A stretch of DNA of 64,000 nt, taken from Escherichia coli (GTDB lineage: Bacteria; Pseudomonadota; Gammaproteobacteria; Enterobacterales; Enterobacteriaceae). The stretch lies in NCBI RefSeq assembly GCF_003334405.1, contig NZ_QOWM01000005.1. One strand, 5' to 3'. A program made the position numbers and the translations under genes. The notes under the pieces were generated by a model, which ran no database searches, was not told the origin of the DNA, and saw nothing but the letters and a program-made list of their open reading frames with translations. This document shows, in pieces, positions 7,771 to 42,819 of this stretch (position 1 is the first letter of the stretch; every line of letters begins with the position of its first letter).

Positions 7771-7968
7771 TCACCGGTTCTGGTGCTGAAGCTGCAGTTG
7801 GCGCAGGGTACGGATATCCTCTCTGGCCTGTTCGATACAGGGCAACAGTGCTGCTGAATCCGTTTTATCCTCATTGTTGTCAAAGATAATTCCCGATTCG
7901 CAGTCGATATTGTCCTGCAGCCACGCAATCAGAATATCCAGTGCGGTTTCCGTGGTTAATGATTTCAT
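7771..7968 (-). CDS. Small hypothetical protein of the CP4-like prophage remnant
   Basis: ORF MKSLTTETALDILIAWLQDNIDCESGIIFDNNEDK... downstream of the toxin-antitoxin cluster; no motif recognised. Confidence 0.3.
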   Translation of the reverse strand: MKSLTTETALDILIAWLQDNIDCESGIIFDNNEDKTDSAALLPCIEQAREDIRTLRQLQLQHQNR

Positions 7969-7979
7969 GTTGTTCCTGG

Positions 7980-8468
7980 TTACCAGTTGAAAGTGGGTAA
8001 ACCCGGCAGGCATTCAGCGCTGGCATCCAGATGAATGAGACTGACGCCATAACGTCGGGTAAGTGTGATAACCAGACGACGGAACGTTTTTGACAGCCCC
8101 AGGCGTTTAAGCCGCAGAACCGGATATGACCACGCATCGGTACGTAACAGATATCCGCTACCTGTGAAATGAATCCATTCTGATTCACCAACGTCACTGG
8201 TCTGATGCGACAGCGAGTACAGCCAGGCGTTATCCTTTTCCGTGATATGTGCGGTACTGCAGCGTATGCCGGCAAGGGTTGCAAACGGTGGTAGTGTGCA
8301 GGTTGACTGTTGGTCGGATTCCTCCACCACGCGGAGTGAATAACCGTTTTCAGCGACCTTGTTAATCAGTTCAGTGAGATTAACACCATCGACGTCAACG
8401 ACAATTCGCCCCATGTTCAGTGCCTGCACATTAATTCTGTCGGCTTCCAGCATCAGGGAAAGTTTCAT
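7980..8468 (-). CDS. YeeW-like hypothetical protein downstream of the CbtA-like toxin
   Basis: 162-aa ORF whose ATG overlaps the toxin gene stop (ATGA), occupying the position of the third gene in CP4-type yeeU-yeeV-yeeW clusters. Confidence 0.4.
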
Positions 8469-10560: not shown

Positions 10561-11016
10561 TCAGTTAACGTTTTTTCCGGAAACGGTAATCAGCAGTGGA
10601 TGGTAGTCCTGGGGATTGAAAACCGATAACGGCAGACTGACACGATGGCCGTTACTTTCTTCAGTTGCTTTGATGATTTCGGTTGTGGCGACATTTTCCA
10701 CGCACTCCGTTTCCAGAAATGCGTCTGTGGTTCGCGTGGCATTACTGTCACCAAAAGCTTCCGTTTCCATTTTTCTGGTCACCAGCGTCTGACCATATTT
10801 GTCTTTGAGTTGCAGAGTGATGGTGAGGGGGCCAAATCCTTCATCGTTTCCGCCATTATCCAGCCGGAACTGGTAAGCACAAATATTTCCCGGGAGCCAT
10901 ATCGTATCTGTATTGCGTATACTGATGTAACGTTGATCCTGTGCCCGGAGTGGGGCAGACCACGTTAACCCCAGAATGAAGGCGGTAATCATGCAGGTTT
11001 TGAACAGGTGAATCAT
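10561..11016 (-). CDS. Hypothetical secreted protein (signal peptide)
   Basis: 151-aa ORF with hydrophobic N-terminal MITAFILGLTWSAPLRA followed by a polar domain; no motif recognised. Confidence 0.4.
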   Translation of the reverse strand: MIHLFKTCMITAFILGLTWSAPLRAQDQRYISIRNTDTIWLPGNICAYQFRLDNGGNDEGFGPLTITLQLKDKYGQTLVTRKMETEAFGDSNATRTTDAFLETECVENVATTEIIKATEESNGHRVSLPLSVFNPQDYHPLLITVSGKNVN

Positions 11017-11091
11017 GGTATTTACCTCTCTGAGTCATGACGATGACACTGACAAATCAGGTGATAAAGCGTAAAAGGCGCAGAATAGCCG

Positions 11092-26837: not shown

Positions 26838-27935
26838 ATGGATTACAGCATGGCTAGTGTTGATGCAGATTACTGCTACTCGTTTCCGGCTATACGTGGC
26901 ATTCAGGCTGGTCGCCCTTTCTATATCGCCACATGCCCGATGCGTATCATCCCGAAAATATTCAGTTTTGATGAAAATGATGTGCCACCGGAATTACGCG
27001 CACAGCGCACGCTAAATAAATCGCGCATTCCCGAGATGGTACGTTATTTGTTGGAAAACCCTAAAGATTATGTGTTTTCAGCTCTGACGGCTTCCATTGC
27101 CGTAGACGTTCAATTTGATGAGTTTCCAGGTTCTAACAATCTGGGGACGTTGTGCGTACCAATGGATGCGCAAATTCTAATCAATGATGGACAACATCGC
27201 CGTAAAGCGATTGAAGACGCTTTAGACGCTCGTCCGGAGCTGGGCCAGGATAATATCCCGGTGTTGTTCTTTGTCGATGAAGGCTTAAAGCGTAGCCAGC
27301 AGATGTTCGCCGATCTGAATAAATACGCCATTCGCCCCAGCCCATCGCTGGCGTCGCTATACGATCATCGCGATGCCTGTTCGAATCTGGCGCGTTATCT
27401 GGCAATGTCAGTAGAGCCGTTTGTTGGGATGACGGAACTGGAAAAATCTGGCATTAGCCAGAGGTCGAATAAGCTATTTACGTTGAGCAGCATCAAGCAG
27501 GCTACCCGCGCATTGTTGGGCAAAGATCCCAAAGAGGATAACTTTGAGGAATGCACCCACATTGCTACCCAATATTGGCAGGCTATTTTTAGTGTAATGC
27601 CTGATTGGCAATTAGCGGCTAAAAAGGAAGTTTCACCGGTTCAATTGCGACAAGATTATGTTCACGCTCATGGCATTGGATTGCAGGCACTTGGGCAACT
27701 AGGATATACCCTGCTGACGGATTATCCTGAGCAATGGCCGGAGAAAATCGCTGCACTCAAAACATTTAACTGGCGTAGAAACAATCCGGACCTCATCAAG
27801 CGAGCGATGCAGCATGGGAAGTTGAGTAAAACCAGTACCGCGATCCAGTTAACCTGCAATGCGCTAAAAACCGCACTCTCAATTCCCCTCACTCCTGAAG
27901 AACAGGAGCTTGAAGCTCAAATGGTTGTCTCATGA
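26838..27935 (+). CDS. dndB: DNA phosphorothioation regulator DndB (DGQHR domain)
   Basis: 365-aa ORF containing the DGQHR motif (INDGQHRRKAI); first gene of a dndBCDE-ordered cluster. Confidence 0.85.
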   Translation: MDYSMASVDADYCYSFPAIRGIQAGRPFYIATCPMRIIPKIFSFDENDVPPELRAQRTLNKSRIPEMVRYLLENPKDYVFSALTASIAVDVQFDEFPGSNNLGTLCVPMDAQILINDGQHRRKAIEDALDARPELGQDNIPVLFFVDEGLKRSQQMFADLNKYAIRPSPSLASLYDHRDACSNLARYLAMSVEPFVGMTELEKSGISQRSNKLFTLSSIKQATRALLGKDPKEDNFEECTHIATQYWQAIFSVMPDWQLAAKKEVSPVQLRQDYVHAHGIGLQALGQLGYTLLTDYPEQWPEKIAALKTFNWRRNNPDLIKRAMQHGKLSKTSTAIQLTCNALKTALSIPLTPEEQELEAQMVVS

Positions 27936-29554
27936 GTAAATTAGTTCAGGCCTATGATTTGGCCGAATACGAAGATTTTATTAATCAGGAACAGTTCGCC
28001 GGACGTCCTCTGGCCGAATATGTTGCTGAGGTTCAACGAATTTATTGTGCGGATAAACGTCCGTGGGTGATTGGCTACAGCGGTGGGAAAGATTCTTCCG
28101 CTGTGATCACGCTGGTGTATCTGGCCTTGCTCGGCCTGCCCCCGGAAATGCGCAGCAAAGATATTTTTGTGGTGTCGTCCGATACGCTGGTCGAAACACC
28201 GGTAGTCGTGGATCTGATTAAGAAAACGATGTTGCAGATTGAGGCGGGAGCGAAGCGTAACGGCTTGCCGATCACTCAACACGCGGTAACGCCTAAAACG
28301 AATGAAACCTTCTGGGTCAATTTGCTGGGGAAAGGTTATCCGGCTCCAACTCGTAGTTTCCGTTGGTGCACTGAGCGCATGAAAATCAACCCGGTGAGTG
28401 ACTTTATTAAAGATAAGGTCAGCCAGTTTGATGAAGTCATCGTCGTACTTGGTTCGCGCAGTAGTGAAAGTGCTTCTCGTGCGCAGGTGATCGCAAAGCA
28501 CAAGATTGATGGATCACGCCTTGCCCGGCATACCACGCTGGCAAATGCATTCATCTATACCCCCATTGATACCTGGGATGTAGAAGATGTCTGGAAGCTG
28601 CTGCGGGGCGCGTTCCGCTATGCCCCTGAAGATATCGACGAGTGGGAAAGCCCGTGGGGTGGAAACAACCGTCCACTGTGGACGTTGTATATGGATTCTT
28701 CCGCACAGGGTGAATGTCCTCTGGTAATTGATGATAGTACCCCTTCCTGCGGCAACTCGCGTTTTGGCTGTTGGACCTGTACCGTTGTCACTAAAGATAA
28801 GGCGATGGAAAGCCTGATCAAAAACGGTGAAGAATGGATGTCTCCGTTGCTGAAATATCGTGATCTGCTGGCATTTACCACCGATCCGGTGAATAAAGAC
28901 ACGTTTCGAAACTATAAGCGCCGTACTGGTAAGGTGAGCTATCAGTACGCTAAAGAAAGTGATGAGCCGGGGGCTGAGCGTAAGCATGTTCCAGGTCCTT
29001 ACTGGCTAAAATACCGTCAGCAATGGCTCAAAGAATTGCTGGAGATAGAGCGCGATTTGAATGCTCAAGGCCATACCATTACGTTAATTACCAAACCAGA
29101 GCTGCATGCGATTCGTCAGGAGTGGTTGAAAGATCCTAATGAACCAGACTGGTATGACACGCTGCCGGGTATTTACCGTGAAGTGTATCAACAGGATTTA
29201 GACTGGGTGGTGGACGATCAGTCGCGCTTTGATGCCAGCGATGCAGATCTGTTGGTGCAGATAGCGCAGGGATTTGACGTTGTGCCTGAAATGGTGATGA
29301 AACTCATCGAGCTGGAAGTTTCAATGGAAGGCTTAAGCCGTCGTCAGGGCATTTTTGACAAACTTGGCACGATTTTAAAGCAGGACTGGGGCACTCTCGA
29401 AGAAATTGAACAACAACAGGTCACTCTGCAAAAACGAGTTGAACGAGATATTCATCAGGAAGAACTTACAAAGCTGGAAACTGAACTTCAGGTTTTACAG
29501 CGCAGAATTGTTGATGCCAGTGAATCCTCGTTACTGATTGGGGAGGAGAAATAA
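27932..29554 (+). CDS. dndC: DNA phosphorothioation protein DndC (PAPS reductase-like PP-loop ATP pyrophosphatase)
   Basis: 540-aa ORF with PP-loop SGGKDS (IGYSGGKDSSAV) and conserved Cys cluster; overlaps the dndB stop. Confidence 0.85.
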   Translation: MSKLVQAYDLAEYEDFINQEQFAGRPLAEYVAEVQRIYCADKRPWVIGYSGGKDSSAVITLVYLALLGLPPEMRSKDIFVVSSDTLVETPVVVDLIKKTMLQIEAGAKRNGLPITQHAVTPKTNETFWVNLLGKGYPAPTRSFRWCTERMKINPVSDFIKDKVSQFDEVIVVLGSRSSESASRAQVIAKHKIDGSRLARHTTLANAFIYTPIDTWDVEDVWKLLRGAFRYAPEDIDEWESPWGGNNRPLWTLYMDSSAQGECPLVIDDSTPSCGNSRFGCWTCTVVTKDKAMESLIKNGEEWMSPLLKYRDLLAFTTDPVNKDTFRNYKRRTGKVSYQYAKESDEPGAERKHVPGPYWLKYRQQWLKELLEIERDLNAQGHTITLITKPELHAIRQEWLKDPNEPDWYDTLPGIYREVYQQDLDWVVDDQSRFDASDADLLVQIAQGFDVVPEMVMKLIELEVSMEGLSRRQGIFDKLGTILKQDWGTLEEIEQQQVTLQKRVERDIHQEELTKLETELQVLQRRIVDASESSLLIGEEK

Positions 29555-29555
29555 C

Positions 29556-31556
29556 GTGCTCATTAAACAGCTGGTATTACATAATTTTCGGGTATTTAAC
29601 GGTACACATACCATTGATCTGGCACCCAGAAAGCGTCCGCACGATTTGAATCCACGACCTATTGTGCTGTTTGGTGGTTTAAACGGCGCAGGGAAAACGT
29701 CTATCCTGTCGGCGATCCGCATAGCGTTGTATGGACGACTGGCGTTTGGGCTAGCGACTCAACAGCAAGAGTATATCGAACAACTCAGTGCATTGATTCA
29801 TAACGGCGCGTACTATATTGAGCAGCCGGAAGAAGCATCTGTAGAACTGACGTTTACCTATAATAAAGGCGGTCATGAGGCCGAATTTACCGTTACGCGA
29901 ACCTGGAAAAAGGGGAAGAGGGACCGCCTTTCTCTGCAACAGGATGGGCAGCCACTCAGTGAGCTGGATTACGATCAGTGCCAGGGATTTCTAAATGAGT
30001 TAATTCCGCATGGCATTGCTGATTTGTTCTTTTTCGATGGCGAGAAAATTGCAGAACTTGCTGAGGACGAATCCGGTAATATTTTACGTACTGCCGTACG
30101 ACGCTTATTGGGGCTGGATCTCATCTCTAAACTGCGTAACGATTTAATGATTTTTGTTAAGCGTCAGCAATCCAGCCAGCTAGCAAGTTCTCAGCAACAA
30201 CAGATTGCAGAGCTTGAAAAACAGAGTAAAGAATTAGCCTGCCAGACAGAAGCACTGCTGGAAAGCGCCGATTTTGCCAAATCGCGGATTGAGTTTCTAT
30301 CTAAAGATATAACCCATTATGAAGGCTTGCTAAATGCTCAGGGGGGCGCTTTTGCCCAGACTAAAGCGCAGGAAAAACAGAAAGTCGAAACGCTGCTAAA
30401 AGATAAAGAACATCTGGAAAAAGCACTGAGACAAGAATGCGATGGCTCGCTACCTTATGCGCTTGCGCCCACTATTTTGTCTCATTTGCTGCAACAAATT
30501 GCTGATGAAACGCAAATTAAACAGGCAAAAAGCTTTGAAAAAGAGCTGAGCCAGTTTTTAACGCAACTCAGAAATGATATTGCATTTCGTTCTGCGGGGA
30601 CTGGCAAAATAGCAGCTGAAGCGATTACCGATAATCTAAAAGATTATATGGCAACGAAACCAAAAGGTGATTTGCTCTTTGATATCTCTGAGCGTGAAGC
30701 AGGTATGCTTCAACAGTCTATTGAGATAGATAGTAAAAGAGCATGGCAGCGTTTCGAGCTTTATCGCACACAGTTATCTGAGATTGAACAACAGTTAGAA
30801 CAAGCGGCTGCTAATATTGCCCGCGCTCCTGAAGATGAGCAGCTGATGGATCTCTTTGAAAAATTACGTGACCTGGATAGGCAGCGCGAAGCCCAATTGC
30901 AGAAATATCGGTCATTGCTAGAAGATGCTAAACGTAAAAAACAGCAGCAACTGGATTGTGTTCGTCAGATTCAAAAAGCGCATGACGCCGCTCGTTATCA
31001 GCACAGTTATAGCAGTGCGTTTAAGAATGCTCAGGAAACGATAAATTTACTCGATCGCTACAGCGATGTATTAACCCAGGCTCGGGTAAAAACGCTGTCG
31101 ACAAACTTCGAGCTTGCTTACCGTAAGTTGGCTCGCAAAGAGGATTTACAACTTAGTGCGCATATCAACCCTCAAACGTTTGATGTTGAATTAATTGATG
31201 AGAATGGCTCAGTAATTAACCGTAAGTTACTTTCTGCTGGTGAAAAACAGATTTATGCAATTGCTATTCTTGAGGCGCTGGCGAAAACCTCTGGCCGTGA
31301 TTTACCAGTGATCATTGATACACCATTGGGTCGTCTGGACTCTCAACATCGAGATAAATTGATTAATCACTACTTCCCTGAAGCCAGTCATCAGGTTGTG
31401 TTGCTTTCTACCGATACTGAAGTAGATGAACGTTATTTTGTTGATCAGTTGCGTGATGATATCTCTCATGCTTATGAGATTGTGTTTAATGCACATACTA
31501 AGTCATCAACGCTGAAGCCTGGTTATTTCTGGGAATTAACTAAGGAGGCTATCTGA
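29556..31556 (+). CDS. dndD: DNA phosphorothioation SMC-like ATPase DndD
   Basis: Walker A GGLNGAGKTS, long central coiled-coil, C-terminal signature/Walker B region; likely start GTG 29556 after GGAGGAG, whereas the ORF track uses TTG 29538. Confidence 0.85.
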   Translation: MLIKQLVLHNFRVFNGTHTIDLAPRKRPHDLNPRPIVLFGGLNGAGKTSILSAIRIALYGRLAFGLATQQQEYIEQLSALIHNGAYYIEQPEEASVELTFTYNKGGHEAEFTVTRTWKKGKRDRLSLQQDGQPLSELDYDQCQGFLNELIPHGIADLFFFDGEKIAELAEDESGNILRTAVRRLLGLDLISKLRNDLMIFVKRQQSSQLASSQQQQIAELEKQSKELACQTEALLESADFAKSRIEFLSKDITHYEGLLNAQGGAFAQTKAQEKQKVETLLKDKEHLEKALRQECDGSLPYALAPTILSHLLQQIADETQIKQAKSFEKELSQFLTQLRNDIAFRSAGTGKIAAEAITDNLKDYMATKPKGDLLFDISEREAGMLQQSIEIDSKRAWQRFELYRTQLSEIEQQLEQAAANIARAPEDEQLMDLFEKLRDLDRQREAQLQKYRSLLEDAKRKKQQQLDCVRQIQKAHDAARYQHSYSSAFKNAQETINLLDRYSDVLTQARVKTLSTNFELAYRKLARKEDLQLSAHINPQTFDVELIDENGSVINRKLLSAGEKQIYAIAILEALAKTSGRDLPVIIDTPLGRLDSQHRDKLINHYFPEASHQVVLLSTDTEVDERYFVDQLRDDISHAYEIVFNAHTKSSTLKPGYFWELTKEAI

Positions 31557-31909
31557 TGCTCCCGAATCGAATGGCGCTTAGCCGTCAGACTGAAGATCAG
31601 CTTAAAAAGCTTAAAGGGTATACTGGGATTACACCCAATATTGCTGCCCGGCTAGCATTTTTCCGCTCGGTGGAGAGTGAGTTTCGCTATTCACCTGAAC
31701 GAGATAGTAAGAAGCTGGATGGTACGCTGGTGCTGGATAAAATTACGTGGCTGGGGGAGACACTACAAGCTACAGAATTGGTGCTGAAGATGCTTTATCC
31801 ACAATTAGAGCAAAAGGCGTTGATTAAGGCATGGGCTGCTCATGTTGAGGATGGGATTGCGGCATTGAGAAATCATAAAAGTTTAATTAGCTTATTAAAT
31901 GCTATATAA
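31556..31909 (+). CDS. dndE: DNA phosphorothioation protein DndE
   Basis: 117-aa ORF overlapping the dndD stop; size and position fit DndE. Confidence 0.8.
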   Translation: MLPNRMALSRQTEDQLKKLKGYTGITPNIAARLAFFRSVESEFRYSPERDSKKLDGTLVLDKITWLGETLQATELVLKMLYPQLEQKALIKAWAAHVEDGIAALRNHKSLISLLNAI

Positions 31910-31950: not shown

Positions 31951-31986
31951 AAACCACCTCCTAGGGAGGTGGTGATTGAGTTTTAT
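31951..31986. terminator. Bidirectional stem-loop terminator between convergent dndE and the ATPase gene
   Basis: Perfect palindrome CCACCTCC-CTAGG-GAGGTGG at 31954-31973 with an A-rich tract upstream and TTTT downstream. Confidence 0.5.
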
Positions 31987-31991
31987 AATTG

Positions 31992-33155
31992 TCATATTGC
32001 TAATTTTAAAATTAATTCACCGGCATCAGGCGAATGTATCAGCGTAGCTAAATGTGAACCACACTTGCAAGAATTGAAGTTGCTGTCCACTTTAAATTTA
32101 AAGCGTCCGTTAGCAACCTCAGCATATCGGTAATTTTCATTCTCACTTTTCTCTTTTAGTTCGATCCTGAATTCATTATTGATATTTTCTAAGCAATATA
32201 AGAATTTTTCTATCTCATATTCGTTAGTTTCAATCCAAAGAGCAATTGCAAAACCCTTTAAGGTAGATAAATGCTTATCCGATAAGATTTTAGACAGCTC
32301 AATGAAAAAATCATGATGATCACAAGTCATAGCATCGAACTCGCCCTCAAGATAATCGGCATCCACGCCTAATTTTGCAGCATAAGCCTGAATGTTATTT
32401 TTTATACACTCTATAACTTCTGCTTCTGGTGGTAAATTATTTTCTGAGGGTAGGAAAACATTTTTAATACAATCTGAATTTATTCCTCTGCTTTTAACTT
32501 GATCGGCATCGTAAACAGATACTATGTTCAGGCCAGAGCTATCTTTATAATGCTCAGATACTTTTTGTATATTAGATTCACCTTGTAGATTATGTAAGTA
32601 ACATGTAGAGTAAAGATGTGTGTTTTTTATTTTTAAGATATATTCAAGTACAAGTTTTGCAAAGTCATCCTCTATCAGGAAAATATTTTTCCTTTCAGGA
32701 GCTAAACCCAGTGCATTGAAATATCTATAATTATATCCACAATTTGATATGGTATATTTTTTGCCTTTTTTAGCTAAGACTAATACTGAGTTTAAGCCTT
32801 GAGGGCTGAGTATGTGTTCAGAGTGAGTAGCCATCAAAACATTTAATTTTTTAGTATCGATTGTGTAGGCTAAAAAATCCATGAAATTTTTCTGGCTTAC
32901 CGGGCAAATAAAACTCTCTGGCTCTTCAATGAAGAGGATTGAATTTTTTTCCGTATAAATAAGTTTCCAGATTGCTATAAGTAACTTATGTTCTCCTTGC
33001 CCCATACTCTCTGACGTATAAACTATATTACTGTTAACCTCTTTAACCTCAAAGTATGGGAAAGTTAAATCATCAATAATTCCTTCTACCTCATTAACTT
33101 TTACATACTCATATTTCTTGCCTGTGATTTTCTGAACAAAAAAAAAGATTTTCAT
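31992..33155 (-). CDS. ABC/OLD-like ATPase, C-terminal part (Walker B, H-loop and TOPRIM-like region); separated from its N-terminal part by a frameshift
   Basis: 387-aa ORF with LFIEEPESF (Walker B-like), MATHSEHIL, and a TOPRIM-like IFLIEDDF ... YDAD; begins with ATG directly abutting the T9 tract. Confidence 0.6.
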   Translation of the reverse strand: MKIFFFVQKITGKKYEYVKVNEVEGIIDDLTFPYFEVKEVNSNIVYTSESMGQGEHKLLIAIWKLIYTEKNSILFIEEPESFICPVSQKNFMDFLAYTIDTKKLNVLMATHSEHILSPQGLNSVLVLAKKGKKYTISNCGYNYRYFNALGLAPERKNIFLIEDDFAKLVLEYILKIKNTHLYSTCYLHNLQGESNIQKVSEHYKDSSGLNIVSVYDADQVKSRGINSDCIKNVFLPSENNLPPEAEVIECIKNNIQAYAAKLGVDADYLEGEFDAMTCDHHDFFIELSKILSDKHLSTLKGFAIALWIETNEYEIEKFLYCLENINNEFRIELKEKSENENYRYAEVANGRFKFKVDSNFNSCKCGSHLATLIHSPDAGELILKLAI

Positions 33156-33603
33156 TTAGCAAATGATAAGAATTTGATGTATTGAACCATCCATTTTTGT
33201 TTGGCGATGTGTTTATTTCGTTTATGATTTTTAATGCCATTGATGAAGCATCAAAATATTCAACATTTCTTAGTCCATCACCCAAAGACGAAGTGAAAGT
33301 TTGTTTCTCTCCATTAATTATTATATCAATGGAGATATTATCAATATCAGAAGAGCTAAAAATCCCAACATTACATATATCTTTCGACAGTATACCATAG
33401 ATAAGTTTCAATAACGACGTTTTACCAATGCCATTTCTTCCACATATAGAGGTTAAAGCTGAGTTTATCGTAATATCAGCATCTTCAAAGAGTGGTACAT
33501 TCTTAATGGATAAACTACATATTTTAATATTAAACTTTTTCCTGTTTGCCACATGATTCCAATAATCAGCTAATTTTGCCATTTTAATTGTTTCTATTGA
33601 CAT
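33109..33603 (-). CDS. ABC/OLD-like ATPase, N-terminal part (Walker A)
   Basis: 164-aa ORF with Walker A GRNGIGKTS; it reads through the T9 tract and terminates 12 codons later. Removing one T joins it in frame to the 387-aa ORF. Confidence 0.6.
   Translation of the reverse strand: MSIETIKMAKLADYWNHVANRKKFNIKICSLSIKNVPLFEDADITINSALTSICGRNGIGKTSLLKLIYGILSKDICNVGIFSSSDIDNISIDIIINGEKQTFTSSLGDGLRNVEYFDASSMALKIINEINTSPNKNGWFNTSNSYHLLNENLFFCSENHRQEI
33138..33146 (-). repeat. T9 homopolymer (A9 on the plus strand) at the junction of the two ATPase ORFs
   Basis: Nine consecutive A at 33138-33146 on the plus strand; on the coding strand ATC TTT TTT TTT GTT. Confidence 0.8.
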
Positions 33604-34799
33604 GTAGTTACCCCCGCTAAAACAGAATCTGCATAATTGTTGACGACGCTTATCAGATTCTTTTCATTTTCATGATAAAGTGCTCTATGCGCAGTTTTTA
33701 GATTATTTTTTTTCATCGTATTGAACACATCTGCTTTACTGGGGTCACTCTTCAAGAAAAATAGAGATATTATAAAGTCTCTGATGAGTAAGGAAGTACC
33801 AGTCATTACTCTTGATACAGCCCTAAAATTAAATTCTTCCAATAACTCCTTTACTTCATCTTTATTTTCACAATAAAACAATCCATCCAACACTCCCTCT
33901 TCTCTGAAAACGAATCTACCACTTTCAAAGCGGTAAAAGAAATCACTAAGGCTATCGTCTAAATTATAATTCGATTTTAAAATGGTTGAAAAAAAATAAA
34001 GCCATGAAGTTAAAGTGGCTTTTGTTATATGAACCTTACTTTCTTCACTATCAATCTTTTTCTTTGCCTTACTTAATATTAAAATGGATTTTTTTACTAG
34101 TTCTATGATTGAATTATCAAAAGGCTCATCTTCACGAGCCCTGTCGTTTAATTGCTTTTCTGTATAAGAAGCAATCAATGAATCCTTCTCAAGCATGTAG
34201 CAAAGTTTAATGAAAAGATCATGGTATGCCATCCTTTGATTACTAAAGCCTAGAAAGTGCTTGTCAAGCCCACAATCCGACATATAATCTACGAGAGATT
34301 TTATCTGGTTTCTTAAATCGCCAACATAAGCATTTCTCTTTTCTGCTGAAGTTAATTTAAGAGATTCATTCAATCTGTTGAATAGTTCACCGGGCTCTCC
34401 CTGATTGTATTCAACAATCTCAAATACTCGAATGGCATACCGTTCAAATCTGTTTTTTATTCTTTGAGGTAATTTATCAAAAGTTAATCCATCTAATTCT
34501 TTGATATCATCATCAATAGGTTCAATTAATCCATTTATTTTGAATTTATTATACATGAAATCTCTTATGGCACTTAATCGTTGCTGTCCATCGAGAACTT
34601 CTTGAATATAGGAATCTTCATTTAAAATAACATGGACAGGTGGAACCTGCCACCCTCTTAGAATAGTATCGATTAAAAGTTTTTTCTTCGGAAGTTGCCA
34701 GACTTCCGCCCTCTGGAAATCGGGTTGGAGATCTAGACTTCCTTCATGAATCCTAGAAAATATAGTCCTCAAATCTGGATCTGTAGTATTTATTTTCAT
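33594..34799 (-). CDS. DUF262-like (ParB/Srx-fold, DGQQR motif) protein
   Basis: 401-aa ORF with LQPDFQRAEVWQ ... VLDGQQRLSAI in the N-terminal 100 aa; its ATG overlaps the dptH stop (ATGA at 34796-34799). Confidence 0.65.
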   Translation of the reverse strand: MKINTTDPDLRTIFSRIHEGSLDLQPDFQRAEVWQLPKKKLLIDTILRGWQVPPVHVILNEDSYIQEVLDGQQRLSAIRDFMYNKFKINGLIEPIDDDIKELDGLTFDKLPQRIKNRFERYAIRVFEIVEYNQGEPGELFNRLNESLKLTSAEKRNAYVGDLRNQIKSLVDYMSDCGLDKHFLGFSNQRMAYHDLFIKLCYMLEKDSLIASYTEKQLNDRAREDEPFDNSIIELVKKSILILSKAKKKIDSEESKVHITKATLTSWLYFFSTILKSNYNLDDSLSDFFYRFESGRFVFREEGVLDGLFYCENKDEVKELLEEFNFRAVSRVMTGTSLLIRDFIISLFFLKSDPSKADVFNTMKKNNLKTAHRALYHENEKNLISVVNNYADSVLAGVTTCQ

Positions 34800-37700
34800 T
34801 TCATTAACTCCCAGAATGCTTTATCACGCATTTTCCTAACTTTTTTATTTCCATCTATATACAGGCTAAAATGCTTCTCAAGTTGTCGTATCTGGCCCAT
34901 TAAAGACTCCTGCTCACTTTTATCGTCAATGTTAAATACCGCCTTAATGTCCGAATTCCTAATCTCAGAAACTCGATGAATTACCCAAGTGAGAATATAA
35001 GAAGCATAATTATTCTCGCCTGTTTTAAAGTGAGTAATTTCTTGTGTTGATAGAATCGCCCCTACACCATATTCACGGCCTTCTTTAAGGATTTTACGCA
35101 AGCTGGCAAAATCCTGGCGCATAAAGTTATCGGCTTCATCAACCAGAATCATTTTGGTTAACTGGCGATAATCACCTCGCACCGTCGGTTTCCCACGCTT
35201 TTGCATCTGCGCATAAAAAAGATCCAGTGTCAGTGCAACTACCAGGTTTTGAATCTCTGATGGATAACCAGCGAGTTCGATAACTGTGACTCCATCAACC
35301 AGATCGTACAAACTGGTCATCTTCTCTGGATCCGTTTCAAAAATCTGGAAACCAGCCAGATTATAAAGTGCAGCATATAATGAATCTTCGTCGACCTTCT
35401 CTTGTGCCAGGTACTGCTGCCACACATCTTCAATAGTCGGTGCTACACGATTCCATGTTGATCGATCATGAGGCACTATTCCTGCTAAGTCATAGCACTC
35501 CATTATTAACGTAACCAGCTTCATGCGTTGTTTTACGCCAAGGTTATACGCTTTGCCCATCGTTTCAGCGAATGCCATGGCCGTATGCCTCGGTAACATG
35601 GGCATATCACCAAATAACGATAACGGATTGTAAGGTAACAACGATAGCTGATACCTCTTAGCTCCCGTAGCTTCAAGAAACGCATCATCCACATAGTCGG
35701 ATTTATAGTCGAAGATCAACAAGCCAATCGGTTTACCGTCAACGTTGTAGGACTGATTGCGCATCAGTTGCGTAACCAGCGATTTAGTAAACTGGGTTTT
35801 CCCGGTGCCCATTGTTCCAATAATGCCGGTATTAGTATTCATGAACTTAGCGGTGTTGGTTGGTTCCCAGTACAATGGATTCTGACGCACAGCATCATGA
35901 CCAAACAAGATCTGTAATGGTGTATTGCGGACATTACTGGGGGTTAGTGCCGATGCTTCAGGTTGTGGAAGCTCCAGCGCAGAAATGGGCGGCGGCTCAG
36001 TTGTTGTTGCTACCTGTACTGGGTGTGAAGAATTGACATCACACTCTGGTTTGAGCAGATATTTTTCCGGCACCCGATAGCGTTCAGCTAGTGGAGGTTG
36101 ATCACCTTGTGCTGCAATTAACGATGGAAGCAATGAATAGGGGATTTCGATCTGTAGAATATTCTCTGCCGTTTCTTTATAAGAGAGATCAAAACAGGTT
36201 CCGCTGTCTACATGAGCTACCACAAAGCCTTCTGCATAATCAGCAAGCTCACCTAACTGATAGTCGCCAGTGAGCCACCATTCACGTCGTTCCAGCAGAG
36301 GGGATAGCTTGTCGTTATCCAGTACACCATACAGACGCAACTTCTCTACCTGCATTAATACTTGGCGGATAAAAAGTGCCCGGTATAGTTGTGATGCTAG
36401 AGTTTTCGGCCCAAGAATATCTTGCTGTAAATAGCGTTTTAGCTCGCGGGCCTGCTGCCCCGCATGGTTGTAATCGGGGCGAGCTCCTGTTTTTACTTCA
36501 AGTGGTAACAGATACAGGTTGTTATCTTTGAAACCGACAAAGAGCACATCGTCAGAGATCGCTCCTTTCTGATAACCCTGTAAATGGCGCGATAAATCGC
36601 TTTCTTTCATTCTCAGCCCGACGTTGCCGGACACGCGGATCATCTCAGCTACTGACAGTGGAATCCAGCAAATATCTGACTGGAGCAGCATAGACTGTAC
36701 GAATTTGTATGCACCGATAATGCCGTGTTTTTCTTTGCGCTCCTTTTCATTTGAACGCAACATTTTTAACAGCCACTCACCGTTAAAGGCATTAAATTCA
36801 GCAAGTAGTTGCTGGCTATCAACGGTGGATTGTCCTGTTTGAAGGAGACGCAGGAACAACTCAACCTGTTTTGTGACAGTTACGGCGTCATAACCAGCAC
36901 AACTGGTGTACTGGTCAGAGTAATGAATTAGTACGACATCTTTTTGACTAGTAAAGAAATCGAGTGTGACCTTAGGGTCGATAATTGTGGTCCAGAGAGA
37001 GCTATCATAAGAGCGATTCAGCAGTTGCTTAAAGTTACCGCTCACAGCCAGACTAATTCCCTGACCGTGATACTGGCTGTTGCTCTGCCGTGCCGGTTGC
37101 CACAGACAGCCTAACAAGCGGGCGAGACGCAGGGCGCAAGACGATTCAGTATCGACATTACGCAGACCAAACGCGGTAAAGTAAGCATCGCCTTGTGTTT
37201 CAGCCCCTTCGCCTGCAATCAAGCCATGACATAAAACCCCGCTGGCAGCATCCTCAATGCGAATTTGGCGGCAATCAACCGGTGCGGTGTTGGTGAAAAA
37301 TGCGAGATGGGCGTAAGCCAGTTGATCGCTTTCCGGTGGCAGGATAAATTTGCTGAATGTTAAGCGACTGCGAAGCAGATCGATCAACATATCGGCTTCA
37401 GAACGCCACGCACCGCTGTTCAGACCAAGATCATTTTTAAGTTGTTCATAGCTGCCGCTTTCGGCAAAGCGGTCAAAGGCATTGGGTAGCAGACGTTCGT
37501 CATAGCAGTTTACGTGTATCGAAATTGCGTTATCTTTTTCCTGCTTAAAATAATCTACCAGTCCCAGGAATAGCTCTCTGGCTTCTCCCATATTAATAGC
37601 ATTAATAACCAGGGCATTATTTCCTGCACTCTGGAACAGCCGAGAATAGGCATCTGTAAATTCGTTTAGCTTGTCTTTCACCAGACGCTTAACATATTCG

Positions 37701-39880
37701 TGGCTCATCTGGCGCTGGGGAACAATATCTATCCAGAAGCGGTTTTCTACCATCGGTTGTAACTGTGCGTATTCATGTTCGCTATGATACACAAATGGCA
37801 TTAGGCCAGAGACGACCAGACGATCTAGAGTAATCTCTGGTAATGAAGCGAAGGAAGCTGATGTGGGGTATCCGGGCTCGGCGATAATAGTTTCAGCTAG
37901 CTGTAAATGATAAGCCATTACCAATGGGTGCAGAGGCGAGAGACGTTCATAATCGTCGCCGCGGCAAATCCCCAGATGTAACAGACGTTTTTCCTGGATG
38001 GTTAATGCTCTGCTTAGACTGATTTGCTGTAATGCCTGTTCAAAAGTAGCGATCATGTGACTGACTAATACACGATATTCTGCTGACCATGACACCAGAC
38101 TCGGCAGGGTATTTCGACGTTGATAGTAAACGAACAATTGGTGGTACGCATTATGGAGGTCGGGATAGCTCGCCAGAAGCTCATCCAGTGCAAACTCACT
38201 ACCATTACTGCCAGTGCTGAGCAGATTACGCTCGATCAGGGCGTACTCTTGCATAAGCAACTGCTGGCGAACACCAACCACATTATGTTCGATATTGTCC
38301 AGGATGACGCGACCTTTCAACTTGTTCCAGGTTGCATTCCCTTCTTCTTTAAAGAGTTTATTGAAACGACCCTGATCAAAAAGCAGAGGCAGTGTTAATC
38401 CTTCCTCTGCTCCTGGACCTTCGATGTTAAACAGTAAACGGGAGTCACCTGAAATCAAGGTAAATTTGATCAGCTCACTTTGATTCGCCAGCGTTTCAAA
38501 ATTAACGAGTGCATAATGGCGGCAATCAACATCATCACTTTCTTCATCAAGTAAACAGGTCTTGTCGCCGAACTCTGCAATACGTAACTCATTATCTTCC
38601 AGTTGCAGAGTTAATTGACCTTTACCAGGTTCAATACGATAACAATGCTGGATTTCATTAAGCCAGAATTGCCCTTGTTCAACTAACAGCAGGCGAAACT
38701 TGTACTCTTCTGCTGAGTTATTGCGGTTAATGATTTCGAGGCTAAAGAAGCAGGGCCGACCATCAAAAGGCACTGATGCCAGTATCTTAGAGTTTCTCCC
38801 CCCGAGCCGGCTAGTACGCCAGAATCGTTCTTTCTGTAACGGACGATGATGAGCAATTTTTACCTGATTGTCCTGAAGGTCGTTACCCTGGAAGATAAAC
38901 TCCAGCTCAACTTGTGACTGCCCCGGTAGAACCTGAACCAGGACACTGATATCTCGTTTACCTGCTTTACTGGTGCTTTTGGCTCTTTGCCAGACCTCAC
39001 CGTTTTCAGCAGTAATGTTTTCCAACACCAGTTTCTGTTCACTGTTTTGTGCTTTTTCATTCAGGTAGACGGAGAAATCAAGCTCACGCCAATCGTCATT
39101 GTCAACGAAATGCTCCTGAATGAATTTTGCACTAAATTCAGTTAGTACATTCTCCAGTTGCCCGCTGTAGCGTTCAACACTGTCCTCTATCTGGCGATAT
39201 AACTTTTGGTTTTCATTGAGCCGGGCGCGCAACTGCTTATCACTAAAATTCAGCAGGTTATTATCGTTGAATAACTTTAGCTCTGAGAAATCCAGATTGC
39301 CGTCGTCCAGCAGACGGTATAACGATGAAAATCCAAAAACCGTAGCGCCTTCATCCAATATTGTTGTCAACTGATCGCCCAGCAAACAGCGGGATACTTG
39401 AGAACGGGCGCTGTCCGTTGTGATTAACTTTTCGAGCTGGTGACGGAAGGTTTCTGGATGCCAGATAGCATCCGGTGCAGCGACATCTTTGGTACTATTG
39501 AGTAAGGTATCCAGCATGCTGTTGTGGATAATCAACAACGCTGTCTGGGCAAAAATGCCATTGCGGCCAGAAACCTGATCGCGTAAATGAGAAATATAGT
39601 TTTCTGTGAATGCAGGGGTAGTGGTGCCGTGCAGTACCGGAATAAGCTGGATATTATTACATTGGACGTAGGTAAGAAATTGCTCCGGTGCAATTTCTAG
39701 TTTATTTCCATTTGCTAAAGAGTCGAAAGCCTTCCAGAGCTTTAAGGCGTTATCCGGATCGGGAGATTTAAACTGGTAGCGCTCACCAGGCTGGATGATG
39801 CTGCTAACCCATTCAATGAAGGTTTCTGCCAGATAGGTTTCATACTGTTTTACGGACATATACGGCGTCTCCACTGTCAC
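34796..39880 (-). CDS. dptH: Phosphorothioation-dependent restriction protein DptH/DndH (large multidomain ATPase)
   Basis: 1694-aa ORF; C-terminal Walker A GTMGTGKTQ and Walker B ILVDEADNF; third gene of a DptF(549)-DptG(441)-DptH(~1700) array. The true start may be the internal ATG near 39859. Confidence 0.8.
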   Translation of the reverse strand: MTVETPYMSVKQYETYLAETFIEWVSSIIQPGERYQFKSPDPDNALKLWKAFDSLANGNKLEIAPEQFLTYVQCNNIQLIPVLHGTTTPAFTENYISHLRDQVSGRNGIFAQTALLIIHNSMLDTLLNSTKDVAAPDAIWHPETFRHQLEKLITTDSARSQVSRCLLGDQLTTILDEGATVFGFSSLYRLLDDGNLDFSELKLFNDNNLLNFSDKQLRARLNENQKLYRQIEDSVERYSGQLENVLTEFSAKFIQEHFVDNDDWRELDFSVYLNEKAQNSEQKLVLENITAENGEVWQRAKSTSKAGKRDISVLVQVLPGQSQVELEFIFQGNDLQDNQVKIAHHRPLQKERFWRTSRLGGRNSKILASVPFDGRPCFFSLEIINRNNSAEEYKFRLLLVEQGQFWLNEIQHCYRIEPGKGQLTLQLEDNELRIAEFGDKTCLLDEESDDVDCRHYALVNFETLANQSELIKFTLISGDSRLLFNIEGPGAEEGLTLPLLFDQGRFNKLFKEEGNATWNKLKGRVILDNIEHNVVGVRQQLLMQEYALIERNLLSTGSNGSEFALDELLASYPDLHNAYHQLFVYYQRRNTLPSLVSWSAEYRVLVSHMIATFEQALQQISLSRALTIQEKRLLHLGICRGDDYERLSPLHPLVMAYHLQLAETIIAEPGYPTSASFASLPEITLDRLVVSGLMPFVYHSEHEYAQLQPMVENRFWIDIVPQRQMSHEYVKRLVKDKLNEFTDAYSRLFQSAGNNALVINAINMGEARELFLGLVDYFKQEKDNAISIHVNCYDERLLPNAFDRFAESGSYEQLKNDLGLNSGAWRSEADMLIDLLRSRLTFSKFILPPESDQLAYAHLAFFTNTAPVDCRQIRIEDAASGVLCHGLIAGEGAETQGDAYFTAFGLRNVDTESSCALRLARLLGCLWQPARQSNSQYHGQGISLAVSGNFKQLLNRSYDSSLWTTIIDPKVTLDFFTSQKDVVLIHYSDQYTSCAGYDAVTVTKQVELFLRLLQTGQSTVDSQQLLAEFNAFNGEWLLKMLRSNEKERKEKHGIIGAYKFVQSMLLQSDICWIPLSVAEMIRVSGNVGLRMKESDLSRHLQGYQKGAISDDVLFVGFKDNNLYLLPLEVKTGARPDYNHAGQQARELKRYLQQDILGPKTLASQLYRALFIRQVLMQVEKLRLYGVLDNDKLSPLLERREWWLTGDYQLGELADYAEGFVVAHVDSGTCFDLSYKETAENILQIEIPYSLLPSLIAAQGDQPPLAERYRVPEKYLLKPECDVNSSHPVQVATTTEPPPISALELPQPEASALTPSNVRNTPLQILFGHDAVRQNPLYWEPTNTAKFMNTNTGIIGTMGTGKTQFTKSLVTQLMRNQSYNVDGKPIGLLIFDYKSDYVDDAFLEATGAKRYQLSLLPYNPLSLFGDMPMLPRHTAMAFAETMGKAYNLGVKQRMKLVTLIMECYDLAGIVPHDRSTWNRVAPTIEDVWQQYLAQEKVDEDSLYAALYNLAGFQIFETDPEKMTSLYDLVDGVTVIELAGYPSEIQNLVVALTLDLFYAQMQKRGKPTVRGDYRQLTKMILVDEADNFMRQDFASLRKILKEGREYGVGAILSTQEITHFKTGENNYASYILTWVIHRVSEIRNSDIKAVFNIDDKSEQESLMGQIRQLEKHFSLYIDGNKKVRKMRDKAFWELMK

Positions 39881-41165
39881 TCATTCTCTCCACATTTCCC
39901 ATGCGTTCATAAAACGCAACCAGCATTTGTGTAGACTGGTTATCCAGATAAAATCCGCGTTGCTCAAAACCACGTAGCAGCTCATGCAGACGGAGTTTTT
40001 TGTTTTTACCCACGGTAAGGTTAGTTAGTAGCAGTAGTCGATCCTGGTTCAGTACCAGCACTTTCCCCGCTCGGCCACGAACCTGAATGAAGTCAGTGCA
40101 AATCTGGCTTTCCAGCTCGTTGATGTATTTGCGATTTACCGCTGCTCGCTCGGTTTTCTTACCCTGAAACTGTTCAACGGCAACAGATAACAGCTGTTTA
40201 AAGGCATCTTCCAGGTTTGTAGCACGATCGCGTTCAGGAAGGTCTCGCTCCTCCTTACTAATGAACTTCTGTATATAATTATTGAGTTCATTTAGTACTC
40301 GATTCGATGTATCTGAATAACCTAAGCAATCTTGATATACCTGCCAAAGAGGGCGCTTTTCCTCACCTTTTACTTGTAATACCTCTAATGCAGAGAGTAC
40401 GGGGAATAATTTTTCACTTTGGCGGGCAAACCACTTATAGCCGAAGAGCTTTATTTTATCTCGTTCGGAGCTAGCTTTTTCAGTATCGAGGATAAAGAAC
40501 AATGATTTACTCTGCGGCTCGCCGTCTTGCCAGTTGTCCAGATTGAGCGCCAGTTGTGCGCACCAACTAAAGGCATACAAACGTAGAGTATTGGTCAGCT
40601 CCTGCAAAAGATATTGTGGGTGCTCTGCCAGAAACGCCAAATCAGACTGAAAACACGTTACCAGATAGGGTAAATAAGGTTGTTCTTTTGCAAATGGCCC
40701 CTCACCCAGTCGGATTAATTTTTTATTGAGCTTATTCAGCATCTCTTTTTCAATAAAATTCAACTTATCTTGTATCGGGTTATTAAGGCTAAAATCTCTC
40801 ATCAAATTGGCAAACAGTGTTCCAAGGCGTTTGTCGGCAGTCGAGCCTGCACTTATCTTTTCACCATCAAACTGAGCGTGGAACAGCAAGAACAGCGGGG
40901 AGACACGAAAAATATCCTGACTGGAAAAATACATCCGTTCCAGCACGGACAAGAACGCAGGTTCATCGATCAATATTTGCAGATGAGTTTTACAATCCTC
41001 GCGAAACTGCTCGAGACTGTATGTATCGATTTTATACTTCACGGCATAGCTCAGTACTAAACCTGTGACGATTTGCCAGTCAATATTGTTATTCTTATTA
41101 CGTATTGGAAGGTAGCTATCCAGCTGGTTATTACTAACTTTTAAATTTGTTGCAATGGGATACAT
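39840..41165 (-). CDS. dptG: Phosphorothioation-dependent restriction protein DptG/DndG
   Basis: 441-aa ORF between dptF and dptH with appropriate size and position. Confidence 0.7.
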   Translation of the reverse strand: MYPIATNLKVSNNQLDSYLPIRNKNNNIDWQIVTGLVLSYAVKYKIDTYSLEQFREDCKTHLQILIDEPAFLSVLERMYFSSQDIFRVSPLFLLFHAQFDGEKISAGSTADKRLGTLFANLMRDFSLNNPIQDKLNFIEKEMLNKLNKKLIRLGEGPFAKEQPYLPYLVTCFQSDLAFLAEHPQYLLQELTNTLRLYAFSWCAQLALNLDNWQDGEPQSKSLFFILDTEKASSERDKIKLFGYKWFARQSEKLFPVLSALEVLQVKGEEKRPLWQVYQDCLGYSDTSNRVLNELNNYIQKFISKEERDLPERDRATNLEDAFKQLLSVAVEQFQGKKTERAAVNRKYINELESQICTDFIQVRGRAGKVLVLNQDRLLLLTNLTVGKNKKLRLHELLRGFEQRGFYLDNQSTQMLVAFYERMGNVERMSDSGDAVYVRKTV

Positions 41166-41169
41166 GATG

Positions 41170-42819
41170 TTATCCCTCCATGCCGCTGATAGTAATCATG
41201 TCATCGTCCGCTCTTGCACTATAGACCCGCTTTAGGCCATCATAAAACTTGATTTCGCTGCTGGATTTTGCCTTTTCTGCGATTAGTTCAACGATTTCGT
41301 CCAGTAAGACAATCGCACTTTTATCATACTTATTAGGGCGATAGCCATTATTTAGTTTGCTCAATAGCTCAAATAAATTAAGACCGATCCGAATCGGATC
41401 TAGCGGATCTTGTCCTACTTTTAAATAGATATCGAAACAAGTTGTATGGGCTGTATTTTTCTTGAGAATTGAATCCCAGTCCGGTTTCAGCGCAACAGGT
41501 GCTGTGATTTTAATCCCACCAAATTCGCCTAAAAAGAACTCTTCTTTTTGGGTACTCAGTTCAGGTGCTTTACGGTTTGCGTAACGCTGAATACCAGCGA
41601 TAAGCTCGAAAGAGTAAAAGCGGTTTAGTGTTCTTTTTTGTTCCGGATCTGCGGTATAGTTTTTATGCAGATGCCAAATCTCTGAATAACGCTCAAAGAG
41701 CGCTTCTTTAAAGAATACAGAGAACCTTTTGTGATAGTTATTCCCTAAAGATTCATGTTGTAGTAGCCAGAAAAGTCTAATTAATGAAGCTGCGTCACCA
41801 GGCTTAACACATTGACGATCAAACGTAAGATGTAATTTCGCAAGTGTACTCAGAAAATCATCCAGTTCGGGATCAACTAATCCAAGCTCATAGCGCAAAA
41901 TAAATTGATCAATCTCGTATGTATGCAATCTGGCAGGATCAAAATCAGAAACCTTTTTAATTAGATCATTCTCTGCACCATTAAACAGATTATCAAACAG
42001 GTACCCAGGCCCTGTCAGCAGGTGGTGTAAAAAATCCAATAAGGTTCTTGTGGTAACAAATTGATCTTTTATTAATCGGGCTTTAAATAGCTGTGTTATT
42101 AAAACATTCTGAACACCGGGCATGCACAGTAGTTTAAAGTTAGCAACGGTTTTTAAATCATGTCCTATTGATTCATCACGTTGATAAATTGTGTAAAACA
42201 GGTTTTTGTCGTCATTCCCCGTTAATTGATTCATTAATTTTTTGATAAAAGGGGAGTATTCCCGCTCTTCGTCAAACTCGAACTTTGGATAATGTTCGAA
42301 ATCAAAAAATATACAATTTTCGTTGCGGTAAGGACGCTGGCCTTCCTGTTGCGCTGACAAGAATGAGTCAATAGCAGCACGGATAGCCATATGGGACTCA
42401 GAACCTTCTCTGGCAAAATTGGCTAGCATCCCGGTGTTGATACCGATGAGGAGCGGGTATGATTGCGAATGATGATTTTCAAATAAATCATTCAGTGCAT
42501 CGATAGCCGATTGTTGAGGCGCAAAGCTATGTGTCGCATCCAGATGGAAACTAAACTTCTGTTGATATTGTGGATCTGACTTACAGCGGGTTAAAATTTC
42601 GGATTTCCCGTCTCCACTACTTCCGCATAGAAAAATGATCTCACCGGGAGTAGCTGTATCCAGATAACGCTGTAACTCTTCTTCAATCTCTTGTTTAACA
42701 AAGAGTTGTTCTTTTAGCTCATCGAACACATCCTTTTGCCGATGAGTTTCTGTGGTTACGGAAAACGAAGATGACTTCGCAAGTACACCTAACGCTTTAC
42801 GTAATGTGATCGCGCTCAT
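41170..42819 (-). CDS. dptF: Phosphorothioation-dependent restriction protein DptF/DndF (P-loop ATPase)
   Basis: 549-aa ORF with N-terminal Walker A CGSSGDGKSE; first gene of the minus-strand array facing the integrase. Confidence 0.75.
   Translation of the reverse strand: MSAITLRKALGVLAKSSSFSVTTETHRQKDVFDELKEQLFVKQEIEEELQRYLDTATPGEIIFLCGSSGDGKSEILTRCKSDPQYQQKFSFHLDATHSFAPQQSAIDALNDLFENHHSQSYPLLIGINTGMLANFAREGSESHMAIRAAIDSFLSAQQEGQRPYRNENCIFFDFEHYPKFEFDEEREYSPFIKKLMNQLTGNDDKNLFYTIYQRDESIGHDLKTVANFKLLCMPGVQNVLITQLFKARLIKDQFVTTRTLLDFLHHLLTGPGYLFDNLFNGAENDLIKKVSDFDPARLHTYEIDQFILRYELGLVDPELDDFLSTLAKLHLTFDRQCVKPGDAASLIRLFWLLQHESLGNNYHKRFSVFFKEALFERYSEIWHLHKNYTADPEQKRTLNRFYSFELIAGIQRYANRKAPELSTQKEEFFLGEFGGIKITAPVALKPDWDSILKKNTAHTTCFDIYLKVGQDPLDPIRIGLNLFELLSKLNNGYRPNKYDKSAIVLLDEIVELIAEKAKSSSEIKFYDGLKRVYSARADDDMITISGMEG

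Follow-up and report, generated by a model that had tools for sequence, protein, structure and literature searches.

The subject of this analysis is a four-nucleotide stop-start overlap, ATGA, in a DNA phosphorothioation (Dnd) island of Escherichia coli, located in a 64,000-nucleotide stretch of contig NZ_QOWM01000005.1 (the window). The overlap joins dptH to a gene for a DUF262 protein, which in turn overlaps a gene for an OLD-type nuclease. A sequence-only reading had interpreted it as the signature of translational coupling, implying that the DUF262 protein is co-expressed stoichiometrically with the restriction complex and is not a chance neighbour of it. Our results show that the DUF262/nuclease pair is an operon-style fusion of an autonomous module to dptFGH, and the overlap itself teaches little; the interest lies in the module and in the swappable slot that it occupies. 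The genes and features of the locus are the following:

26850..31909, plus strand: dndBCDE, the genes for phosphorothioate modification, running convergently to the dpt operon
31953..31973, both strands: bidirectional terminator-like hairpin, ACCACCTCC-tag-GGAGGTGGT, a perfect 9 bp stem with T-rich tails on both strands
31992..33603, minus strand: gene for an OLD-family ABC-ATPase plus Toprim nuclease, intact (536 aa) in E. coli B7A, where it is annotated 'ATP-dependent nuclease'
33138..33146, minus strand: T9 homopolymer, which puts the nuclease gene out of frame; the run is T8 in B7A and in at least 11 further genomes, in which the 536-aa frame is intact
33594..33603, minus strand: 10-nt overlap of the DUF262 stop and the nuclease start (ATGTCAATAG)
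33594..34799, minus strand: gene for the DUF262 (GmrSD_N / ParB-like) protein, 401 aa, Pfam PF03235
34796..34799, minus strand: ATGA stop/start overlap, with the dptH TGA at 34798..34796 and the DUF262 ATG at 34799..34797
34808..34812, minus strand: GGGAG, similar to a Shine-Dalgarno (SD) sequence, 8 nt 5' of the DUF262 ATG
34796..39859, minus strand: dptH (DndH), 1687 aa from the RefSeq start; PADLOC DndH and NCBIfam TIGR03237, both E = 0
39840..41165, minus strand: dptG, upstream in the same operon, overlapping dptH by 20 nt
41170..42819, minus strand: dptF, upstream gene of the same operon as dptG and dptH

The dptH/DUF262 junction

On the plus strand the junction reads TCAT at 34796..34799, which is ATGA on the minus strand, where both dptH and the DUF262 gene lie (the strand had not been stated before). 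The 3' end of dptH, GCA TTC TGG GAG TTA ATG AAA TGA, codes for ...AFWELMK and a stop, and the DUF262 gene starts in the +1 frame relative to dptH with ATG AAA ATA AAT (MKIN...). The overlap originally noticed is real, and the same 4-nt overlap is found in the RefSeq annotation of E. coli B7A; over 22.6 kb, only 3 substitutions and one extra T separate B7A from the window. At its other end, the mechanical open reading frame (ORF) of dptH (34796..39880, 1694 aa) extends to a GTG at 39880, and the RefSeq start is the Met at 39859.

The start assigned to the DUF262 gene is also right, since its ATG is the first start codon past an in-frame stop, M1 is invariant in 30 homologues, residues 1-20 are modelled with confidence by AlphaFold2 (AF2) as a strand and a helix belonging to the domain, and the next in-frame Met is residue 82, past the conserved QR and DGQQR motifs. 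A start at an in-frame ATG further downstream, which the sequence-only reading had named as a finding that would speak against it, was rejected because Met82 lies too late and residues 1-24 are conserved and structured. The SD-like GGGAG derives from the C-terminal Trp-Glu codons of DptH (...AFWEL...) and sits inside the upstream ORF at functional spacing; as the FWEL end is conserved in every DptH compared, the site is encoded by conserved codons.

Such a junction is nevertheless ordinary, since 6 of the 31 same-strand adjacent coding sequence pairs in the B7A annotation of the same 64 kb overlap by 4 nt (tnpA/B, fecI/R, fecB/C, fecC/D, dndB/C and dptH/DUF262). In a set of 720 genomes, overlaps were present in about 15% of co-directional pairs, most often those of the 4-nt class (PMC6728339); the ATGA is an instance of the commonest type of operon junction. 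In addition, DUF262 homologues with no upstream dptH, in Salmonella and Pseudomonas, still start with ATGAAAAT or GTGAAAAT, and the Met-Lys start of the gene therefore already supplies the TGA by itself. Other tight junctions of the island are those of dptG/dptH (20 nt, 39840..39859), dndB/dndC (4 nt, ATGA-type, 27932..27935) and dndD/dndE (1 nt, 31556).

Conservation of the overlap in related islands, put forward earlier as a check, holds in part. Among related islands of Enterobacterales, those of E. coli, SRR1749386, Yersinia and Klebsiella retain the ATGA and its frame relation, although the bases around the junction have been substituted. In Aeromonas the frame of dptH differs and runs on through the ATGA, so that the overlap grows to 20 nt, and in Vibrio the two genes are apart, by a 133-nt spacer in V. 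alginolyticus and a 173-nt gap in V. vulnificus. In V. alginolyticus a terminator-like hairpin followed by a T run (locus positions 7880..7900) lies 13 nt past the dptH stop, which suggests that in this species the pair would be expressed separately from dptFGH. In Shewanella violacea, a gene for an SBD-HNH (ScoMcrA-like) protein is found between dptH and the DUF262/nuclease pair.

In the window, dptH and the DUF262 gene are co-directional with no intergenic space, and no terminator was found between them. A promoter belonging to the downstream gene, which would have weakened the earlier interpretation, did not appear either: a crude scan for sigma-70-like sites gave no consensus match on the minus strand at 34800..36000, the 1.2 kb upstream. 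The hairpin at 31953..31973, the only terminator-like signal, sits between the convergent nuclease gene and dndE, and from its sequence it is likely to be the end of a dptF-G-H-DUF262-nuclease transcript and likely to act as a bidirectional terminator for both operons.

As for translation, the predicted fold shows no start-masking RNA structure at the junction that would enforce coupling; both the SD and the AUG lie in unpaired RNA, in a region with less structure than its shuffles (z +1.28), so that independent initiation is equally possible. Among native E. coli ATGA pairs tested, 4 of 5 were coupled by termination-reinitiation and 1 of 5 was initiated de novo (Huber et al. 2019, PMC6728339). 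Like the ATGA/TGATG reinitiation pairs of that work, the junction joins co-directional genes that overlap by 4 nt and has its SD within the upstream one, and no structural difference sets it apart from them. Translational coupling from dptH to the DUF262 gene is plausible on these grounds, but the stoichiometric co-expression that had been read into the overlap is unsupported. The DndFGH complex has been published as F2:G2:H1 with no fourth subunit (PMC11662687), and since dptG and dptH overlap too although their products stand at 2:1 in the complex, an overlap does not fix equal stoichiometry.

The slot behind dptH and the companions of the DUF262 gene

dptH is present in 207 of 5426 complete E. 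coli genomes, and the cargo between dptH and dndE differs among them:

DUF262 and nuclease genes, B7A type: E. coli B7A, 4-nt overlap with dptH, 13 genomes
DUF262 and nuclease genes, second type (43% identity): PK8566, 11-nt overlap, 31 genomes
Mrr-like restriction endonuclease gene: SE11, identical ...TGGGAGTTAATTAAATGA junction, uncounted
179-aa protein and DGQHR_dnd_1 (TIGR04172, 1e-117): strain 135 and FORC_041, 8-nt overlap, uncounted
AgrB-like protein and split DGQHR: O157 86-24, 37-nt gap, uncounted

A DUF262/nuclease pair of either type is thus carried by 44 of the 207 dptH-positive genomes (13 + 31), and the other dptH-positive E. coli sampled carry different cargo, so that the pair is not present wherever dptFGH is. 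In SE11 the ATGA is found at locus positions 8420..8423, and the gene downstream codes for an unrelated protein, an Mrr-like restriction endonuclease of 273 aa that shares 58% identity with the Mrr_cat protein encoded just 5' of the DUF262/nuclease pair in Pseudomonas 8209 (locus 2639..3466). The DptH of FORC_041 is 97% identical to that of the window and is followed by different cargo (locus positions 10704..12397), the DNA similarity ending exactly at the end of dptH. The 179-aa protein and the 'DNA phosphorothioation-associated DGQHR protein 1' occur in islands with a DptH of 97% or 84% identity. In O157 86-24 the DGQHR gene appears split, with the AgrB-like gene before it.

Every DptH compared ends in ...AFWEL plus 0-8 residues that depend on the cargo, the tails before the stop being MK, IK, TK, MKDKKNDY, LTNE, VF, IFNENKYN and LQ. 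Since the residues after AFWEL vary with the cargo, the stop codon of dptH is supplied by the junction. The use of the ATGA by an unrelated gene in SE11, together with the variety of the cargo, shows that the tight junction belongs to the slot rather than to the DUF262 gene.

The companions of the DUF262 gene were followed by tracing its closer relatives one by one, which gave a sample of 14 lineages and not a census. All 14 lineages with DUF262 relatives of 43-100% identity adjoin dndBCDE. Nine of them also carry dptFGH (E. coli B7A type, SRR1749386, Yersinia similis, Klebsiella, Aeromonas, Vibrio alginolyticus, V. vulnificus, Shewanella violacea and E. coli PK8566 type), and five do not (a Salmonella integrative and conjugative element, Pseudomonas 8209, P. 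fluorescens, Pseudomonas 1079 and a Serratia-like contig). The arrangement of the pair relative to dndBCDE varies, being convergent, co-directional upstream or on an integrative and conjugative element. In a midpoint-rooted neighbour-joining tree without support values, the dnd-linked DUF262 proteins form one group apart from the dnd-free ones, and within this group the members with and without dptFGH are interspersed. The Serratia-like contig (locus 7295..13048), which has no dptFGH, combines several slot modules in one locus, namely a 162-aa protein, a 402-aa DndB-like protein, the DUF262/nuclease pair and a PIN-domain gene, and then dndEDCB.

A contig scan for DUF262 homologues returned, among the matches listed, only relatives of at most 46% identity; those of 38-46% come from Marinobacter, Psychrobacillus, Paenibacillus, Clostridia, Bradyrhizobium, Caballeronia, Pseudomonas and others. 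Among the matches listed, an OLD-like ATPase homologue lies directly 3' of the DUF262 homologue in 17 of these distant loci, from many phyla, and no DptF/G/H or DndB-E homologue was found within 8 kb of those 17. In 20 of the 21 lineages compared, dnd-free ones included, the DUF262 and ATPase genes share 1-19 nt where they meet. The DUF262 gene thus forms an obligate pair with the OLD-type nuclease gene, its constant partner, and in the dnd-linked clade it keeps to dndBCDE, not to dptFGH. The sequence-only reading was correct in that the gene is no chance neighbour, its clade always adjoining dnd genes, but its view of stoichiometric co-expression with the restriction complex is not supported, as the gene is found apart from dptFGH and is missing from most dptH-positive E. 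coli.

The DUF262 protein, the nuclease and related systems

The only Pfam match of the DUF262 protein is GmrSD_N/DUF262 PF03235 (5e-20, residues 11-159), and NCBIfam holds no model matching it. Its invariant motifs in the 30 homologues are Q29 R30, D70-R74 (DGQQR) and F140 with N144 (FxxxN). The AF2 model (pLDDT 89) has an N-terminal NTPase-type domain followed by an all-helical region at residues 160-401, and no nuclease domain was found in the protein. The best PADLOC family is NsnA, the Menshen sensor (3e-33), and the best fold in the Protein Data Bank (PDB) is BrxU, followed by ParB/Noc. PDB sequence searches with the protein and with its 30-sequence profile returned nothing meaningful, so that its relation to DndI and SspE rests on the domain family.

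The nuclease gene, split in the window into ORFs of 164 and 387 aa, has Pfam matches to AAA_15, AAA_21 and AAA_23, and its best PADLOC family is HEC-04 (2e-27, the profile being covered to position 486 of 494). Residues invariant in 23 homologues are those of the Walker A and B motifs and the signature (G55-K61, E226-E229 and H260-S261), as well as E311-D312 and D365xD367 of the Toprim domain. The protein thus has the ABC ATPase residues and the C-terminal Toprim domain with Glu and DxD that define the OLD family. Its AF2 model (pLDDT 88.7) finds as best PDB fold the Thermus scotoductus OLD protein (6p74, 3e-11), with further matches to retron PtuA ATPases, retron Eco8 and Gabija GajA (8u7i, 8tjy). 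The dnd-linked nucleases (512-570 aa) carry an extra, confidently modelled β-rich C-terminal domain of about 60 residues (~478-534), which corresponds to ~31995..32180 of the window and is absent from most dnd-free relatives (473-487 aa). This extension could tie the pair to phosphorothioate or to Dnd proteins.

The closest parallel is DndI, a DUF262-HNH protein of Salmonella enterica Cerro 87 whose gene is co-transcribed with dndFGH and which works with IscS-DndBCDE alone (PMC11662687); dndI has also been found with dndBCD alone in 61 genomes (PMC11662687). Features that define DndI include an NTPase activity stimulated by phosphorothioate DNA and toxicity when phosphorothioate is absent. Both proteins have an N-terminal DUF262 NTPase with the DGQQR motif, and both genes lie between dndH and dndE, co-directional with dndFGH, and occur beside dndBCD(E) with or without dndFGH. 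However, DndI carries its own C-terminal DUF1524 HNH nuclease on the same chain, whereas the DUF262 protein has none and is accompanied by a separate OLD-type ATPase-Toprim protein. The DndI structure 9JFL gave no sequence match to the DUF262 protein.

Menshen (NsnABC, PMC12065111) resembles the pair in its NsnA, a ParB-DUF262 protein with a helical C-terminal domain (the match spans DUF262 residues 2-279 and profile positions 45-331 of 385), and in the ABC ATPase that follows, the core of which matches NsnB (3e-14; profile 205-282 of 345). NsnB has a DUF3696 tail, though, which the ATPase described here lacks, its C-terminal half being a fused Toprim domain, and Menshen has a third gene, NsnC (inPIN plus effector), whereas here the two genes are followed by the terminator and the convergent dndE. 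The nuclease shares with OLD, HEC-04 and Gabija GajA an ABC ATPase fused to Toprim with the conserved Glu and DxD. HEC-04 and class 1 OLD proteins act as single genes, while this nuclease is never solitary and is always preceded by the DUF262 gene; the partner of GajA is a UvrD-like helicase, and here it is the DUF262 protein, in 17 of 17 homologous loci with a visible downstream gene among the matches listed. GmrSD, BrxU and SspE likewise have a DUF262 sensor/NTPase with the QR, DGQQR and FxxxN motifs, but the GmrSD family uses a DUF1524 His-Me nuclease, which is found in neither protein of the pair, the nuclease here being of the Toprim type and ATP-driven.

Two other candidates were rejected. 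GrwAB/TgvAB (PMC12137116) are two-gene GmrSD-like systems that keep the DUF1524 nuclease, and for PD-T4-2 a match exists between its A component, PD-T4-2_A, and the DUF262 protein (5e-18), but none to PD-T4-2_B was among the families at E ≤ 1e-8 for the second gene. Other nucleases near dnd genes have been listed in the Rakesh/Aravind survey. No description of a DUF262 plus OLD-type nuclease pair as a Dnd partner was found in the literature searched, which does not in itself prove novelty.

A possible second restriction arm

We think it probable, though some way from certain, that the ATGA is an operon junction joining a separate two-gene restriction module, the DUF262 protein and the OLD-type nuclease, to the 3' end of dptFGH. 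By analogy, the module is probably a second, phosphorothioate-linked restriction arm in the same position as DndI in Salmonella. dptH runs on into the start of the cargo behind it, whatever this may be, and finds its stop codon among those first codons, and the pair would be transcribed from the dptF promoter, as dndI is with dndFGH in Salmonella. Ribosomes ending dptH may reinitiate at the overlapping AUG, or 30S subunits may load directly on the exposed GGGAG, and by either route the module would be switched on together with DptFGH at no fixed ratio. More speculatively, and again following DndI, the DUF262 NTPase could read the phosphorothioate or DNA status and gate the ATP-driven Toprim nuclease, which would result in a second restriction arm sharing the DndBCDE 'self' mark.

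Several observations weigh against this interpretation. Co-transcription and reinitiation are deduced from sequence, and the unstructured RNA of the junction does not enforce coupling. The hairpin and 133-nt spacer of V. alginolyticus indicate that fusion to the operon is inessential to the module, and the distant relatives without dnd genes indicate that phosphorothioate sensing is not family-wide. DndI and SspE are absent from the 50 best fold matches listed for the DUF262 protein, the PDB sequence searches gave no direct similarity to the known phosphorothioate-reading patch, and the tree that groups the dnd-linked proteins has no root other than its midpoint and no support values. Lastly, the module may be inactive in this window, given its frameshifted nuclease gene.

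The idea closest to the earlier interpretation, in which the DptFGH complex has the DUF262 protein as an accessory subunit, stoichiometric and translationally coupled, for example as a sensor, draws on the 4-nt overlap with its SD, on the retention of this overlap in four related islands and on the sensing of modification by DUF262 domains in SspE, GmrSD and DndI. We regard it as very unlikely, because the published F2:G2:H1 complex has no fourth subunit, dptG and dptH overlap despite their 2:1 ratio, SE11 uses the same ATGA for an unrelated restriction endonuclease, and the pair is found in only 44 of 207 dptH-positive E. coli while also occurring beside dndBCDE without dptFGH in five lineages and, among the matches listed, without any dnd or dpt genes in about 17. 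Even less credible is a role as a DndB-like regulator of phosphorothioate modification outside any restriction module. DndB is likewise a ParB-superfamily NTPase and DGQHR/DndB-like proteins occupy other variants of the slot, but the DUF262 gene is always paired and overlapping with a nuclease that keeps all its catalytic residues, it has relatives with no dnd genes to regulate, and its best family match is the Menshen sensor NsnA and not DndB.

The remaining alternatives concern the bond of the pair to phosphorothioation and the function of the overlap. The pair could be a generic, phosphorothioate-independent defence of the Menshen or HEC-04 kind, hitch-hiking in the island because defence genes cluster, and borrowing the dptFGH promoter through the overlap, as the relatives of 38-46% identity form the same pair without dnd genes, HEC-04 defends alone as a single ATPase-Toprim protein, and unrelated nucleases (restriction endonuclease, SBD-HNH, PIN) are also found in the slot. 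Loose clustering of this kind is hard to fit with a clade of at least 43% identity in which 14 of 14 lineages adjoin dndBCDE in three arrangements, those lacking dptFGH included, or with a C-terminal extension common to the dnd-linked nucleases and absent from most dnd-free relatives, and we consider this explanation unlikely. A better case, although still a doubtful one, can be made for a functionally silent overlap, with de novo initiation at the gene's own SD and the ATGA as an incidental result of the insertion of a cassette directly at the dptH end. Neither the SD nor the AUG is paired, in a region less structured than shuffles, the TGA belongs to the gene's Met-Lys start even without dptH, the overlap drifts in length (4, 8, 11, 20 nt) or becomes a 37-173-nt spacer, and one of five E. 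coli 4-nt pairs was initiated de novo (PMC6728339). This has to be set against the four of five native ATGA pairs coupled by termination-reinitiation in the same work (PMC6728339), and against a frame relation retained across islands whose DptH proteins are 83-88% identical despite the surrounding substitutions.

A further proposal built on the operon junction is offered as tentative, and we would sooner expect it to fail than to hold in full. The site after ...AFWEL may be a precise cassette-exchange site where alternative modules, of nucleases or of ParB-superfamily proteins, are swapped at the start codon, and the pair an undescribed, phosphorothioate-coupled 'split DndI', with Toprim in place of HNH, for which DndBCDE marks self; it could replace DptFGH and may contribute to the defence attributed to 'DndBCDE-FGH' in B7A.

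The second restriction arm favoured here would have consequences for several lines of work. E. coli B7A, a standard model of Dnd restriction, has two uncharacterised genes wired into its dptFGH operon; B7A dndBCDE-FGH plasmids (e.g. pWHU4387) would contain the pair if cloned as one native fragment, and published B7A results would then call for re-examination. The pair resembles a complete sensor-plus-nuclease system that travels with the modification genes even without DptFGH, and it may help explain "orphan" dndBCDE clusters. If it reads phosphorothioate, it would join DndFGH and DndI as the third type of restriction partner of DndBCDE, and would be the first DUF262 reader driving an OLD/Toprim nuclease in trans. 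The swappable cargo behind a near-identical dptH also offers a natural experiment on the exchange of defence modules at single-codon precision.

The T tract of the nuclease gene varies beyond the T9 of the window. E. coli EC416 has T7 at the same tract, so that the two are frameshifted in opposite directions, and such differences in length could stem from sequencing error or from true slippage by which the nuclease is turned off. A second run, within the DUF262 gene of EC416 (context GGCTTTATTTTTTTTCAACC, locus position ~2705) and equivalent to a T8 run of the window, has lost 1 nt as well, which leaves neither gene of the pair in one piece in the EC416 assembly.

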